Part shown: one piece after another, positions 3,134 to 13,817 of the stretch
Layout: the number at the start of each line of letters is the position of its first letter
Numbering within the stretch: position 1 is the first letter of the stretch
Notes under the pieces: model-generated
Told to the model about the DNA's origin: nothing
Seen by the model: the letters and a program-made list of their open reading frames with translations, nothing else
The model's database searches: none
Made by a program: the position numbers and the translations under genes
IMG/VR virus record: IMGVR_UViG_2531839482_000006
Strand: one strand, 5' to 3'
From: a virus
Taxonomy: Duplodnaviria; Heunggongvirae; Uroviricota; Caudoviricetes
DNA length: 13,817 bases

Positions 3134-3736
3134 ATGAGCTATTTTCTGCGCAAAAAATGGATGGTAAATTTGTCCGGGTCAGGAAAAATTTTATGGGCGC
3201 TAAACATGAAAAAAGATTCGTATCCTTATTTGATTTGCATGACAGTTTCAGGGCTGATCTTTATTTTCCTTTTCTTCTGGTGGCGGGCAGATATCTACAG
3301 GGTCACGTTTCTTAATCAGAGTATATCCCACTATTACATTCTGTTTAGCATGGGAATAGCTTTTCTGTTATCTCTGTTTTGGGTTAAGAAGGGGATAGTA
3401 AAACAAAGCGGCTGGAAGAGTCTGTCAGCATACCTTAAGGGTTATGCAGGGATGTGCATATTTGCTGGATTTTTTCTGATTATACCCCTTACGACACTAA
3501 CTTATTTTTTGCCTGGAGAGACATCGTCTTATGTTGCACCGTATCGGTATACTTCCGGTAGTTCAAAAAGTTGTTCTGGAGCTGAGGTGGATGACCCCGA
3601 TCTACATGAGAATATTCGCATTTGCTATCCGTATGGCAATTATGAGTACGATAATATTATCTATGTTGAAAAGAAAATTAATATATTAGGTGCGGTAGTG
3701 ACATATGCACAGACCGCGCGTGATGATACTGAATGA
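3134..3736 (+). CDS. Hypothetical multi-pass membrane protein with a ~75-aa Cys/Tyr-containing C-terminal domain; cargo gene in the slot lambda uses for ea8.5/ea22
   Basis: 200-aa ORF on the strand opposite all neighbouring genes; visibly AT-rich; three hydrophobic helix-like segments (LICMTVSGLIFIFLFFWW, YYILFSMGIAFLLSLFWV, MCIFAGFFLIIPLTTLTYFL); followed by its own hairpin terminator. Start is uncertain (in-frame ATGs at 3134, 3161, 3206, 3239; none has a strong Shine-Dalgarno). Confidence 0.55.
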   Translation: MSYFLRKKWMVNLSGSGKILWALNMKKDSYPYLICMTVSGLIFIFLFFWWRADIYRVTFLNQSISHYYILFSMGIAFLLSLFWVKKGIVKQSGWKSLSAYLKGYAGMCIFAGFFLIIPLTTLTYFLPGETSSYVAPYRYTSGSSKSCSGAEVDDPDLHENIRICYPYGNYEYDNIIYVEKKINILGAVVTYAQTARDDTE

Positions 3737-4911: not shown

Positions 4912-5582
4912 TGCTCCCCAAATACAAAACCAATTTCAGCCAGTGCCTCGTCCATTTTTTCGATGAACTCCGGCACCATCTCGTCAAAACTCGCCATGTA
5001 CTTTTCATCCCGCTCAACCACGACATAATGCAGGCCTTCACGCTTCATACGCGGGTCATAGTTGGCAAAGTACCAGGCATCTTTTCGCGTCACCCACATG
5101 CTGTACTGCACCTGGGCCATGTAAGCCGATTTTATTGCCTCGAAACCACCGAGCCGGAATTTCATGAAATCCCGGGAGGTAAACGGGCATTTCAGTTCAA
5201 GGCCGTTGCCGTCACTGCATAAACCATCGGGAGAGCAGGCGGTGCGCATACTTTCGTCGCGATAGATGATCGGGGATTCAGTAATATTCACGCCGGAAGT
5301 GAATTCAAACAGGGTTCTGGCGTCGTTCTCGTACTGTTTTCCCCAGGCCAGCGCCTTAGCATTAACTTCCGGAGCCACACCGGTGCAAACCTCAGCCAGC
5401 AGGGTGTGGAAGTAGGACATTTTCATGTCAGGCCACTTCTTTCCTGAGCGGGGCTTTGCTATCACGTTGTGAACTTCTGAAGCGGTGATGACGCCGAGCC
5501 GTAATTTGTGCCATGCATCATCCCCCTGTTCGACAGCTCTCACGTCGATCCCGGTACGCTGCAGGATAATGTCCGGTATCAT
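4902..5582 (-). CDS. exo: Lambda exonuclease (Red-alpha), 5'-3' dsDNA exonuclease
   Basis: 226-aa ORF recognised as near-identical to lambda Exo ([50 protein letters not shown]...); overlaps bet. Confidence 0.95.
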
Positions 5583-6364
5583 GCTGCCACCTTCTGCTCA
5601 GTGGCTTTCTGTTTCAGGAATCCAAGAGCTTTCACTGCTTCGGCCTGTGTCAGTTCTGACGATGCGCGAATGTCGCGGCGAAATATCTGGGAACAGAGCG
5701 GCAATAAGTCGTCATCCCATGTTTTATCCAGGGCGATCAGCAGAGTGTTAATCTCCTGCATGGTTTCATCGTTAACCGGAGTGATGTCGCGTTCCGGCTG
5801 ACGTTCTGCAGTGTATGCGGTATTTTCGACAATGCGCTCGGCTTCATCCTTGTCATAGATACCAGCAAATCCGAAGGCGAGACGGGCACACTGAATCATA
5901 GCTTTATGCCGTAACATCCGTTTGGGATGCGACTGCCACGGCCCCGTGATTTCTCTGCCTTCGCGAGTTTTGAATGGTTCGCGGCGGCATTCATCCATCC
6001 ACTCGGTAACGCAGATCGGATGATTACGGTCCTTGCGGTAAATCCGGCATGTACATGATTCATTGTCCTGCTCAAAGTCCATGCCATCAAATTGCTGGTT
6101 TTCATTGATGATACGGGACCAGCCATCAACGCCCACCACCGGAACGATGCCGTTCTGCTTGTCAGGGAAGGCGTAAATTTCTTTCGTCCACGGATTAAGG
6201 CCGTACTGGTTGGCGACGATCAACAATGCGATGAACTGCGCATCGCTGGCATCACCTTTAAATGCCGTCTGGCGAAGAGTGGTGATCAGTTCCTGTGGGT
6301 CGACAGAATCCATGCCGACACGTTCAGCCAGCTTCCCAGCCAGCGTTGCGAGTGCTGTACTCAT
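5579..6364 (-). CDS. bet: Lambda Bet (Red-beta) single-strand annealing protein
   Basis: 261-aa ORF recognised as lambda Beta ([59 protein letters not shown]...). Confidence 0.95.
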
Positions 6365-6884: not shown

Positions 6885-7017
6885 TTTTTGGGACTCCTGG
6901 CTGATTAAGTATGTCGATAAGGCGTTTCCATCCGTCACGTAATTTACGGGTGATTCGTTCAAGTAAAGATTCGGAAGGGCAGCCAGCAACAGGCCACCCT
7001 GCAATGGCATATTGCAT
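6853..7017 (-). CDS. cIII: Lambda CIII (inhibitor of FtsH-mediated CII degradation), 54 aa
   Basis: Hand translation from the ATG at 7017 gives [54 protein letters not shown] with stop at 6853-6855; below the ORF-track size threshold. Confidence 0.9.
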   Translation of the reverse strand: MQYAIAGWPVAGCPSESLLERITRKLRDGWKRLIDILNQPGVPKNGSNTYGYPD

Positions 7018-7089
7018 GGTGTGCTCCTTATTTATACATAACGAAAAACGCCTCGAGTGAAGCGTTATTGGTATGCGGTAACGCCGCGC

Positions 7090-7653: not shown

Positions 7654-8103
7654 TTACTTAACCAATGATGCTGCATATTCGATAAGGTGAAGCTTTGGGG
7701 CCAGCCAAATTTTTAACCAAGTCATATTGGTTACTACACCAATAATAAAAATCCCCCACAGAGTCAAAACTCCAACCAATGGCATGATAAGAAGATTAAT
7801 ATCACCTTTGCTATCCCAAACCATTGTCGGCCTGTATTTGGGATTTCCTTTCTCCCATGAATATCCTTCATCACCGATTTTACCTGTCTCAACTCTTTGG
7901 CACTGCTTCTTCATAAACCAGAAAACCAGTGGGATTGTTAGAATGGCCATTAATGTTTTAATCAGACTGTCAACCATATTCCATAGCAGCAACTGATGAA
8001 CAACATCAGGAATCTGTGCCTGGCTAAATGAAACAGCCGCGTCTATTCCATTACTGGCTTTTTGCAGTAGTTCTACGAGAATCTTGTTTGCTTGTTCTTC
8101 CAT
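7654..8103 (-). CDS. Hypothetical two-helix membrane protein (149 aa) in an inserted cassette; candidate superinfection-exclusion or abortive-infection effector
   Basis: Complete ORF with a strong RBS (AAGGTGA before the ATG at 8103); soluble N-terminal ~45 aa then two hydrophobic helices (LIKTLMAILTIPLVFWFM, INLLIMPLVGVLTLWGIFIIGVV); own terminator; flanked by a 14-bp direct repeat; no lambda gene corresponds. Confidence 0.7.
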   Translation of the reverse strand: MEEQANKILVELLQKASNGIDAAVSFSQAQIPDVVHQLLLWNMVDSLIKTLMAILTIPLVFWFMKKQCQRVETGKIGDEGYSWEKGNPKYRPTMVWDSKGDINLLIMPLVGVLTLWGIFIIGVVTNMTWLKIWLAPKLHLIEYAASLVK

Positions 8104-8850: not shown

Positions 8851-8879
8851 ATAGTACGATATGTACTTTATTTGGTCAA
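8851..8879 (-). promoter_or_regulatory. pL-like promoter with overlapping operator dyad (oL)
   Basis: Minus-strand TTGACC (-35), 17-nt spacer, TACTAT (-10); the spacer contains the dyad AGTACGATATGTACT (8853-8867). Confidence 0.5.
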
Positions 8880-9064
8880 TACGATTTGTTCTAAAATGGG
8901 GTGATTTTTTATAACACTTTGTATTTAATAGTGTTGTTTTTTAGCGTGGGTGTATCGCCTCGGCGATGTAAGGAGAGATCAGAATTGCGTGGTTTAGTGA
9001 GTTGTATCTATTTATTTTTCAATAAATACATTTGGTTATGTGTCTTTAGGTGGGGGCGTGAGGC

Positions 9065-9090
9065 AAAGAAAACCCGGCGCTGAGGCCGGG
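9065..9090. terminator. Bidirectional intrinsic terminator at the end of the cI operon (lambda tImm-like)
   Basis: cccggc-gctgag-gccggg hairpin (9073-9090) flanked by aaagaaaa on one side and tttt on the other; lies directly after the last gene of the cI operon. Confidence 0.7.
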
Positions 9091-9092
9091 TT

Positions 9093-9377
9093 TTAGCTAA
9101 TGATTTGGAATCCTATATCCTCAAGCGTTGCGTCACCTCTGCATAACGCATGAAAGTGACGAGCTTTCAGTCCAGCTTGCTTAGCCATGGATTTTATTAA
9201 ATCTCTGGAGAATGGGGCGTGATGCTTATCAACTGTAACCACCCATTTTCCTTTACTGTTCTTGAGAACCCACTGTTCGTGAGAGGTTCCTGTTTTAGGT
9301 TTCATTTCAAACCCCATTTTCTTAAGTCCCCTGATTACCTCGTCGTATTTCAAAGGAGTAAGCTTTTTCAAGAACAT
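9093..9377 (-). CDS. HicA-family (YcfA-like) putative mRNA-interferase toxin with a ~30-aa C-terminal extension
   Basis: 94-aa ORF; HicA-like motifs read by eye: GF...TGTSHEQW...KWVVTVDKHH...LIKSMAKQAGL; start 11 nt after the stop of the upstream partner gene; followed directly by the terminator. Confidence 0.6.
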   Translation of the reverse strand: MFLKKLTPLKYDEVIRGLKKMGFEMKPKTGTSHEQWVLKNSKGKWVVTVDKHHAPFSRDLIKSMAKQAGLKARHFHALCRGDATLEDIGFQIIS

Positions 9378-9388
9378 GTAATGTAACC

Positions 9389-9685
9389 CTAAGCATGAGC
9401 ATCACAAGGCTCAGCAAAGAGTTTTGCTTCACCTCGTTTTCTGACAAAAACCTGAAATGCAATTACCCAATACTTAAGCCACATAGATAAAGGTGCTTTC
9501 CGACTTAGTAGTTGTTTTGCATATTCCGGCTCTGATAGCGCTTCAGTGAAAAAATCTTTAATCTGCTCATCCAGTTTGTTTACAGCTTCTTTCATAGTAT
9601 CTGCTTGCGCTGCCAATGACAGGTCTAAACATGCAGCTACGTAAACGCCGTTCTGCTGGTAGGCCATGCAACGTAAGGTTTTCAT
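9389..9685 (-). CDS. HicB-like (UPF0150-fold) putative antitoxin, no recognisable C-terminal DNA-binding domain
   Basis: 98-aa ORF with GAGGAG RBS 7 nt upstream; N-terminal region GVYVAACLDLSLAAQADTMKEAVNKLDEQIKDF resembles the HicB N-domain pattern; tightly coupled to the HicA-like gene. Confidence 0.5.
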   Translation of the reverse strand: MKTLRCMAYQQNGVYVAACLDLSLAAQADTMKEAVNKLDEQIKDFFTEALSEPEYAKQLLSRKAPLSMWLKYWVIAFQVFVRKRGEAKLFAEPCDAHA

Positions 9686-9857
9686 TTTATCTCTCCTCAG
9701 AAGCTCTCATGTAGGAGCTTAAGTGAAGTTTACCCTATAGGTAATTTTAGACAACCCCAAAATACCTATATTTTGTAAATGTCAATACATTAGCAGCGAA
9801 TACCTTCCAACTTATCCACAAGCCAGAGATTGATAGCTTAAAAAACAAACAGAGAAA

Positions 9858-10511
9858 TTACCCAAACGTCTCTTCTGGCCACTGGCTGGCGATAACTTTC
9901 CCCACAACGGAACAACTCTCATTGCATGGGATCATTGGATATTGCGGGTTTAGTGGCTGTAGAAACACCTGACCGCTATCCCTGATCAGTTTCTTGAAGG
10001 TAAACTCATCACCACCAAGTCTGGCTATGCAGAAATCACCTGGCTCAACAGCCTGCTCAGGGTCAACCAGAATTAACATCCCGTCAGGAAAACTAGGTTT
10101 GGAACCTGTTGGGGCGGTCATCGAGTTACCTTCAACCTCAAGCCAGAATGCAGAGTCACTGGCTTTTTTGGTTGTGCTTACCAATCTCTCCGCATCGCCT
10201 TTGGTAAAGGTTCTGAGTTCTGGAGAGAACATCCCAGCCTGAACATGAGAAAAAACAGGGTACTCATATTGTTTTTTAACTGGGGCCGATGAGTATTCGC
10301 CAACAGGTGAAAATGTCCCGTCGTGGTTGAATGATATGTTATCAATACCAAGGTATTTAAACACCACACCAATATCACTAAGAGATGGATGACGAGATCC
10401 GCGCAACCAGTGTCCAATTCCACCCTGCGTCATACCTAGCTCTTCGGCTAACTTCTCTTGAGTTATGCCGAGCTCTTTCATTCTGGATCTAGCCAGTTCA
10501 TACCATTTCAT
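9858..10511 (-). CDS. cI: CI-type repressor: non-lambda N-terminal HTH domain fused to a lambda-like C-terminal LexA/S24 autocleavage domain
   Basis: C-terminal ~135 aa match lambda CI ([28 protein letters not shown]...GNSMTAPTG...[46 protein letters not shown]) including the Ala-Gly cleavage site; N-terminal ~80 aa ([38 protein letters not shown]...) is unrelated. Start chosen at the Met at 10511 (AAGGA 7 nt upstream); the maximal ORF extends to 10559. Confidence 0.85.
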
Positions 10512-10551
10512 TTTCATGTCCTTATTATTACGCTCTGTATTGCAACCATCC

Positions 10552-10601
10552 ATGCACAATGTGTATTTTTGCTTGCACTAAAAAAGTACATATTGTATTT
10601 T
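10552..10601. promoter_or_regulatory. oR / pR / pRM region: operator-like dyads and a plausible pR
   Basis: Near-palindromes ATGCACAATGTGTAT (10552-10566) and GTACATATTGTA (10586-10597), resembling the oL dyad; pR candidate TTGCAC (10573-10578), 17 nt, TATTTT (10596-10601) upstream of cro. Confidence 0.45.

Positions 10602-13272: not shown

Positions 13273-13817
<545 letters not shown>

Follow-up and report, generated by a model that had tools for sequence, protein, structure and literature searches.

A two-gene cassette behind cI

This work concerns a stretch of 13,817 nucleotides (nt) from a virus of the Caudoviricetes (IMG/VR record IMGVR_UViG_2531839482_000006), called the window below, and in particular two small genes that follow the repressor gene cI on the minus strand, in the interval occupied by rexA and rexB in phage lambda. 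The proximal gene encodes a candidate HicB-like antitoxin of 98 amino acids (aa) and the distal one a HicA-family protein of 94 aa; together with a leader ahead of them they make up a hicBA cassette, which fills the interval between the cI stop codon and the start of the tImm hairpin region. Its parts, and the terminator that adjoins it, are as follows.

9093..9857, minus strand: the whole mobile cassette, 765 base pairs (bp), made up of the 172-nt leader, the hicB-like gene, the 11-nt spacer and hicA
9686..9857, minus strand: leader of 172 nt between cI and hicB, part of the cassette
9389..9685, minus strand: hicB-like gene for a candidate antitoxin, 98 aa, with a predicted partial RNase H fold (beta-beta-beta-alpha...beta) and without a DNA-binding domain
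9378..9388, minus strand: spacer GGTTACATTAC, 11 nt, holding only a weak AGGG Shine-Dalgarno (SD)-like element for hicA
9093..9377, minus strand: hicA, 94 aa, HicA family, predicted histidine-dependent endoribonuclease toxin
9062..9094, minus strand: tImm-like intrinsic terminator with a 10-bp stem at 9070-9094 and a U-tract to 9062, overlapping the hicA stop codon (9093-9095)

The organisation given in the preliminary description of this DNA, namely two tightly coupled small genes on the cI strand with an 11-nt spacing and a 172-nt gap to cI, is present in full. That description also had the pair end at a tImm-like terminator, which stands in so far as a real hairpin with a U-tract lies there: the arms AAAACCCGGC and GCCGGGUUUU form a GC-rich 10-bp stem (-16.3 kcal/mol, z = -2.7) followed by UUUUCUUU, and a simple terminator scan overlooked it because the stem takes in the first four U. 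However, the hairpin belongs to the conserved phage backbone, being common to lambda, 2B8 and the Stx phages, and the mobile unit comprises only 9093-9857. With a GC content of about 40%, the cassette does not stand out from its flanks (39-50%), and Rfam finds no RNA family within it.

The HicA-family product

The 94-aa protein matches the Pfam family HicA_toxin (PF07927) with an E-value of 8.4e-11 and 42.3 bits against a gathering threshold (GA) of 27, its residues 12-70 covering positions 2-58 of the 58 in the profile, and it matches PHROG 353, annotated 'toxin', with an E-value of 2.5e-18. The motifs TGTSHEQW, VVTVDKHH and KQAGL, from which the distal protein had been assigned to the HicA/YcfA family, are all in place, and Pfam, PHROG and the fold agree with that assignment. 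Within TGTSH, His33 is invariant in 41 homologues and aligns to the histidine of Thermus thermophilus HicA (1whz), and in characterised HicA proteins RNase activity and toxicity depend on the equivalent histidine, which HicB buries in the solved complexes (PMC11594946). The product of the 94-aa gene is thus a member of the HicA toxin family by sequence, for which RNase activity and toxicity are predicted.

A 30-aa C-terminal extension, put forward earlier as an unusual trait of this HicA, shrinks on closer comparison. The Pfam model stops at residue 70, but the alignment to 1whz runs to residue 78 and a helix at 72-80 is well predicted, so that the extra tail amounts to about 15 poorly conserved residues of low model confidence, which are absent from the relatives in Pseudomonas and elsewhere (80-82 aa). 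In E. coli strain PigCaeca_1, the Prokaryotic Genome Annotation Pipeline (PGAP) gives HicA as 70 aa, starting at Met25 (locus L017, 3029-3241). A truncated toxin in this strain was considered and ruled out, as the sole difference from the window is a synonymous single-nucleotide polymorphism at 9249; the short form is therefore a choice of start site in annotation, not decay.

The HicB-like product

Profile searches treated the two proteins unequally, for whereas HicA lies above its GA, the 98-aa protein reaches among Pfam families only DUF1902 (E-value 0.01, 16.4 bits), under the GA of 22. It has no NCBIfam match, and a profile search against the PDB returned nothing significant (TTHA1013, E-value 0.47). 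Some of its database homologues carry the name HicB from their sources, and the family is large: at 50% identity it forms 1460 clusters (E <= 1e-3), with lengths of 95-125 aa in nearly all. The structural model, with a mean predicted local distance difference test (pLDDT) score of 74, shows three strands, helices and a final strand, which is the N-terminal partial RNase H fold of HicB; sequence identity between the solved HicAB structures and the window pair is just 9-26%.

Pfam detects neither a helix-turn-helix (HTH) nor a ribbon-helix-helix (RHH) domain in the 98-aa protein, and the model contains no further domain. Since the single fold fills the whole chain, the protein would be a HicB of class 2, lacking a DNA-binding domain, rather than one of class 3 or 4. 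The model therefore bears out the earlier view of the proximal protein as HicB-like without a DNA-binding tail, and we regard it as a HicB-fold antitoxin candidate whose family is not assignable from sequence.

The pair as a functional unit

Linkage was counted over one genome per species (GTDB), where relatives of the 98-aa protein are encoded at 39 loci. At 33 of the 39, a hicA of the same subfamily lies 3' of the hicB-like gene at a distance of -35 to +19 nt, and the same adjacency was found in all four genomic-context sets examined. Between genera, the proportion of synonymous differences (pS) is 0.64-0.98, which is saturated, against 0.15-0.30 non-synonymous differences per site, and the ratio of non-synonymous to synonymous rates (dN/dS), where computable, is 0.10-0.20 for both. 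Judged from this comparison, the hicB-like/hicA pair is a real functional unit that is co-conserved and under purifying selection.

In its antitoxin-first gene order, its small HicB without a DNA-binding domain and its tight linkage, the pair corresponds, as far as sequence tells, to the class 2 hicBA of Gerdes. Like the members of that class (PMC10865869), it combines close linkage of hicB and hicA in this order with a dsRBD-like fold of HicA and a partial RNase H fold of HicB, and the 98 aa of the window HicB fall within the class range of 63-103 codons, again with no recognisable DNA-binding domain. It differs in the length of HicA, 94 aa against 60-85 aa in the class, which is due to the variable tail of about 15 residues confined to the Enterobacterales branch. 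The account of the class in PMC10865869 gives no location beside a repressor or in the rex slot.

The rexAB slot

The claim that the pair occupies the rexA-rexB slot downstream of cI holds at single-base resolution against lambda itself. In blastn comparisons with phage 2B8 and a Stx1-converting phage, both of which share this cI, homology ends at window position 9092 and resumes at 9857/9858. Against lambda, window 8973-9092 corresponds to lambda 35708-35826 at 90.8% identity, ending at the rexB stop codon, and homology resumes at 9862, 4 nt within the 3' end of cI, from where 9862-10268 matches the 3' part of lambda cI at 93.6%. These breaks delimit the foreign segment as 9093-9857, which extends from the hicA stop codon up to, but not including, the stop codon of cI. 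The 765-bp hicBA and the 1.4-kb rexAB are thus alternative occupants of a single slot, bounded by the cI stop codon and tImm.

The same exchange has occurred beside an immunity region that is nearly that of lambda. In E. coli GPEC79-13-647 (locus L016), cI-cro-cII is 99.2% identical to lambda and is followed by a hicBA cassette 100% identical to that of the window, with no rexAB; the identical cassette thus stands there beside a cI whose N-terminal domain differs from that of the window. PigCaeca_1 has the same arrangement, with an immunity region that is lambda-like but more diverged (about 90%). Among 5426 complete E. coli genomes the cassette occurs in 20, of which 17 have the immunity type of the window, while about 1695 match parts of the flanking query.

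In other genomes, these flanks enclose BRO, DUF1828 or DUF2335 proteins, a NYN-domain nuclease (2B8), the 173-aa b63 of Stx phages, or rexAB. The open reading frame (ORF) b63 has no family match and is negative in PADLOC. The segments equivalent to window 9093-9857 are listed here.

L002, 2797-3787: slot equivalent
L003, 2790-4113: slot equivalent
H59-H91: hits in the slot equivalents

The interval between cI and tImm is a hotspot of cargo exchange, documented at base resolution.

The cassette outside the slot

Related cassettes are also found outside immunity regions. In a Klebsiella oxytoca prophage one lies between tail genes and the tape-measure gene, in Xenorhabdus one follows tail-fibre assembly genes, and a Neisseria prophage has one 3' of ERF-SSB. 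Pseudomonas phage YMC11/02/R656 has a copy adjacent to int, Atlantibacter has one flanked by the genes for a TonB receptor and an esterase, and at four loci the neighbours are purine-biosynthesis genes (purK/purE-type domains); other copies have putAbiC genes nearby. In Pseudomonas syringae phage Medea1 (NC_074658), the order cI, hicB, hicA on one strand recurs with a pair of 39% protein identity. The Medea1 genes are unannotated, GenBank having an opposite-strand ORF, gp56, in their place:

L059, 2980-3300 and 3301-3543, plus strand: the Medea1 hicB-hicA pair

This pair has a near-consensus promoter, TTGACA-16-CATAAT (2889-2916), and hairpin-plus-T-run signals both before (2696-2714) and after it (3575-3590).

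An obligate cI-hicBA operon was considered and rejected, as Peptidase_S24 occurs in just 2 of 130 neighbouring ORFs, and phmmer with cI as query found one repressor, 5 kb away. Because its own leader travels with it, because it occupies non-immunity sites and because the Medea1 copy has its own promoter, the cassette is best described as an autonomous module for which the slot was a permissive site. Therefore, the earlier picture of a toxin-antitoxin (TA) module wired into the immunity operon is retained in part: the pair does lie directly behind cI, and this position recurs in Medea1, but the module is independent of the repressor promoter and is found in tail regions, by int and at chromosomal sites as well.

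Leader, promoters and expected expression

The hicB gene has a strong SD, GAGGAG at 9698-9693, 7 nt ahead of its ATG, and from this and the weak AGGG of hicA the antitoxin is expected in excess, as in the usual arrangement. No sigma-70 promoter was found in the leader under a 9-of-12 rule with spacers of 16-18 nt; after the spacer was relaxed, two promoter-like sites appeared, TTGACA-15-TATTTT (9785-9759) and TTGTCT-16-TAAACT (9754-9727), which are suggestive only. A 12-nt inverted repeat (9736-9747 / 9759-9770) overlaps both, and the K. oxytoca copy has a TAAACT-type element at an equal distance from the ATG. The cassette of each clade has its own palindrome ahead of hicB (L004, L019-L030), although HicB is without a recognisable DNA-binding domain.

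The scanner found no terminator between cI and hicB, and RNA folds in this interval are indistinguishable from those of shuffled sequences. Since no terminator separates them, expression of the pair is expected to follow CI status at least partly. The phage 434 PRM transcripts run through hex, and in lambda rexAB is transcribed with cI from PRM, ending at tImm (PMC3564112).

Prophage setting and neighbouring genes

The window covers the early region of an E. coli lambdoid prophage that is integrated beside ybhC, at the lambda attachment site; over 13.3 kb it shares 98.5% identity with a prophage of E. coli O55:H7 CB9615. The genes and features around the cassette are these.

Minus strand, in order: int, xis, exo, bet, gam, kil, cIII, a DUF2528 (ea10-like) gene, a gene for a 149-aa protein of no assigned function, N, pL/oL, the hairpin terminator, the hicA/hicB-like pair, cI
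Plus strand, after cI: cro, cII, O, P, ren, then an IS21-family fragment
9858..10553 by the PGAP start, 9858-10559 by the ORF list, minus strand: cI repressor, HTH_3 (E-value 2.1e-10) and Peptidase_S24 (E-value 1.3e-28) in Pfam, start uncertain
8851..8879, minus strand: pL-like promoter TTGACC-17-TACTAT in the oL region, just past the terminator as in lambda, coinciding with the putative oL/pL features of the Stx1 phage record

The cI gene is a chimera with a break near 10268. Its S24 C-terminal domain is of lambda type (93.6% nt identity to lambda cI over window 9862-10268), while its N-terminal HTH part belongs, with the operators and cro, to another immunity type, common to the Stx1, Nil2, 2851 and 2B8 phages; the hicBA cassette goes with the lambda-type C-terminal half of cI in prophages of at least two immunity types.

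Beyond the immunity region, the C-terminal fragment of an IS21-family IstB ATP-binding protein lies at 13425-13718 (minus strand; Pfam E-value 6.8e-43), and homology to the CB9615 prophage ends at 13358, which indicates that the prophage of the window strain is interrupted or truncated just past ren. Two hydrophobic, cargo-like proteins without a Pfam or PADLOC match are encoded elsewhere: one of 149 aa (7654-8103, minus strand; PHROG 3054) between the ea10-like gene and N, and one of 200 aa (3134-3736, plus strand; PHROG 1416) between xis and the exo region, on the strand opposite to them. Rfam places Lambda_thermo, the translational thermoregulator of cIII, at 6972-7030 on the minus strand (88.5 bits, full length), as in lambda. 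The bet gene is intact in the window (261 aa; 5579-6364, minus strand), and its counterpart in the CB9615 prophage (L001 5515-6301) is annotated as frameshifted.

Discussion

Much of what lies at this locus has precedents. PGAP labels the two products 'DUF1902 domain-containing protein' and 'type II toxin-antitoxin system HicA family toxin', accessory genes on the PRM transcript are textbook knowledge, with rexAB, stk of 933W and hex of 434 as examples (PMC3564112), and a TA pair behind a CI-like repressor has been published (PMC8630535); the earlier suggestion that the arrangement is not a described system therefore does not hold in that form. Already known are both protein families, the slot as a home of lysogen-expressed accessory genes, and the placement of a TA behind a CI-like repressor. 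The literature searched contained no account of hicBA in the rex slot, of a base-exact rexAB swap in prophages of lambda immunity, or of a functional test of class 2 hicBA.

The closest positional counterpart is RexA-RexB of lambda, with which the cassette shares the identical slot from the cI stop codon to tImm, the cI strand, the number of two genes and the lack of a terminator after cI. However, hicBA is unrelated to it in sequence or fold, no Rex family being among the Pfam, PHROG and PADLOC matches; Rex combines a DNA-binding sensor (RexA) with a membrane effector (RexB), while HicA would be a cytoplasmic RNase held by a protein antitoxin, and the exclusion phenotype, known for Rex, is a proposed one for hicBA. 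The paaR2-paaA2-parE2 operon of the cryptic prophage CP-933P (E. coli O157:H7) likewise has a type II TA right behind a CI-like repressor, within a lambdoid immunity region; the TA is co-transcribed with the repressor, and its antitoxin does not itself regulate the operon (PMC8630535). Its toxin is the gyrase poison ParE and not an RNase such as HicA, its repressor is of another family, and its authors favour addiction or stabilisation, while hicBA has its own leader and is found outside immunity regions too. With the canonical HicAB of E. coli K-12, Y. pestis (HicAB3), B. pseudomallei and S. pneumoniae, the window pair shares the toxin fold, the catalytic-type histidine and the fold of the antitoxin N-domain, but their gene order is reversed relative to it, and as the window HicB has no HTH or RHH domain, the known mechanism of HicB autoregulation cannot apply. 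The stk gene of 933W, hex of 434 and other prophage cargo are, as hicBA would be, non-essential lysogen-expressed genes beside the repressor, in a slot whose cargo varies among related phages; stk encodes a tyrosine kinase and hex an inhibitor of RecA cleavage, both with demonstrated phenotypes, unlike hicBA.

Based on these findings, we propose that the cassette is a self-contained class 2 hicBA module that came by recombination to stand in place of rexAB, and that its most likely benefit is abortive infection or exclusion expressed in the lysogen; as a whole, we hold this proposal to be evenly balanced between right and wrong. The benefit in defence or exclusion is its least certain step, and would make the module a functional stand-in for RexAB without relationship to it. 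Among the possible benefits we rank defence ahead of addiction or stabilisation, these ahead of a selfish cassette, and last a role in the induction of the prophage itself or in counter-defence. Abortive infection or exclusion takes the first place because of the other cargo of the slot and the recurrence of the pair behind cI, and the genes on the PRM transcripts of lambdoid phages, namely rexAB, stk and hex, commonly exclude other phages (PMC3564112).

In the lysogen, transcripts from PRM would read through into hicBA, as they do into rexAB in lambda, with a promoter within the 172-nt leader probably contributing, and transcription would stop at tImm. HicB, with its strong SD, would be made in excess over HicA, with its weak one, and would mask the active site His33 of HicA, as the solved HicAB complexes suggest. 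Upon depletion of HicB, free HicA could cleave mRNAs and arrest growth; such depletion might occur when another phage infects, through shut-off of transcription or proteolysis, or when the cassette is lost.

Several observations weigh against such a defence. In the literature searched, there is no report of protection against a phage by a HicAB acting on its own; HicAB2 of the P. putida prophage P1, a functional TA, gave no phage protection (PMC12894663), and for the lysogenically expressed HicAB-like pair of mycobacteriophage Adephagia no target phage could be identified (review). PADLOC-DB 2.0.0 holds no family matching either protein at E <= 1, and PMC10865869 describes class 2 hicBA as not yet put to the test for toxicity or neutralisation. 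A phage-related role is also not required for the cassette to persist, as many copies lie beside housekeeping genes at ordinary chromosomal sites. Moreover, expression from PRM alone would free HicA upon prophage induction, which argues for independent control. A more pointed form of the proposal, in which hicBA was recruited as a CI-controlled, lysogen-specific abortive infection system replacing RexAB, its level set by the prophage switch and not by antitoxin autoregulation, and was placed behind cI independently in E. coli lambdoids and in Medea1, seems to us possible but doubtful.

Alternatively, the cassette might serve addiction or stabilisation, killing or arresting cells that lose the prophage or swap its immunity region with a heteroimmune phage, which we consider unlikely while giving it serious weight. 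Such a role has been put forward for paaA2-parE2 of the CP-933P immunity region, backed by plasmid-stabilisation data, and the linkage of the cassette to the lambda-type C-terminal domain of cI, while the N-terminal domain, operators and cro are swapped, is the recombination scenario discussed in that work (PMC8630535); in addition, HicAB of a Paracoccus prophage stabilises a plasmid (review). However, HicAB2 of P1 was without effect on prophage excision or copy number (PMC12894663), the benefit would be small because integrated prophages are rarely lost, and the cassette is rare in the slot given the many genomes that match the flanks (20 of 5426 against about 1695). Less probable still is a selfish or neutral hitch-hiker, an autonomous TA that inserts wherever it is tolerated, the cI-tImm interval being a permissive and recombination-prone site, with no gain to prophage or host. 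The scatter of the family over tail regions, sites after tail-fibre assembly genes, by int and after ERF-SSB, and positions between housekeeping genes would fit such an element, as would its own leader with promoter-like sites and the near-consensus promoter and own terminator of the Medea1 copy, but the strong purifying selection on both genes across genera, the independent placement right behind cI in two unrelated phage groups and the fact that most characterised cargo of the slot is functional in lysogens speak for a benefit.

We think it improbable that the pair acts in the phage life cycle, HicA freed upon CI cleavage and PRM shut-off causing a shut-off of host mRNA that tips the prophage to lytic growth, as RexA biases the switch of lambda, or in counter-defence, HicB serving as a decoy for HicA-type defences of the host. 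A role of RexA and RexB in the lysogenic-to-lytic transition is documented (bioRxiv 10.1101/2021.04.19.439022), the Adephagia mutant lacking gp90, which is HicB-like, has a defect in its lytic growth, the acquisition of antitoxins by phages is known (review), and cI and hicB are not separated by a terminator. Yet a pure decoy would have no need of a toxin gene, which here is intact and conserved with the antitoxin, an unselective RNase would cut phage transcripts too, and no such case is on record for any HicAB system. Hardly credible, finally, is that the pair is no working TA at all but a decayed remnant or two small proteins of other function: the antitoxin does lie under every sequence-profile threshold, but both ORFs are full length against about 40 homologues, with key residues invariant, tight linkage and low dN/dS, and the fold matches are specific.

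HicAB systems are among the most abundant TA families, and a role in defence has been proposed for them from gene neighbourhoods only (PMC10865869; PMC11594946). The prophages described here provide a clean natural swap, in which a lambda immunity region holds hicBA exactly at the position of rexAB between identical flanks, and this makes experiments in the lambda system straightforward. Questions that could be addressed there are whether the pair serves phage exclusion, prophage stabilisation or neither, how a HicB without a DNA-binding domain is regulated, and what becomes of the toxin on CI cleavage. Moreover, as BRO, DUF1828, DUF2335, NYN nuclease, b63, rexAB and hicBA all stand between the same flanks, the cI-tImm interval should be useful for mining lysogen-expressed functions.

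In conclusion, should the pair be merely a selfish TA cassette, the result would be an ordinary one. If CI-controlled defence is its true role, however, it would be the first stand-alone HicAB shown to defend against phage, and would bring the first functional data on class 2 hicBA, in the best-understood phage background. The main interest of the locus is that it offers a clean, lambda-based experimental handle on the role of HicAB systems.

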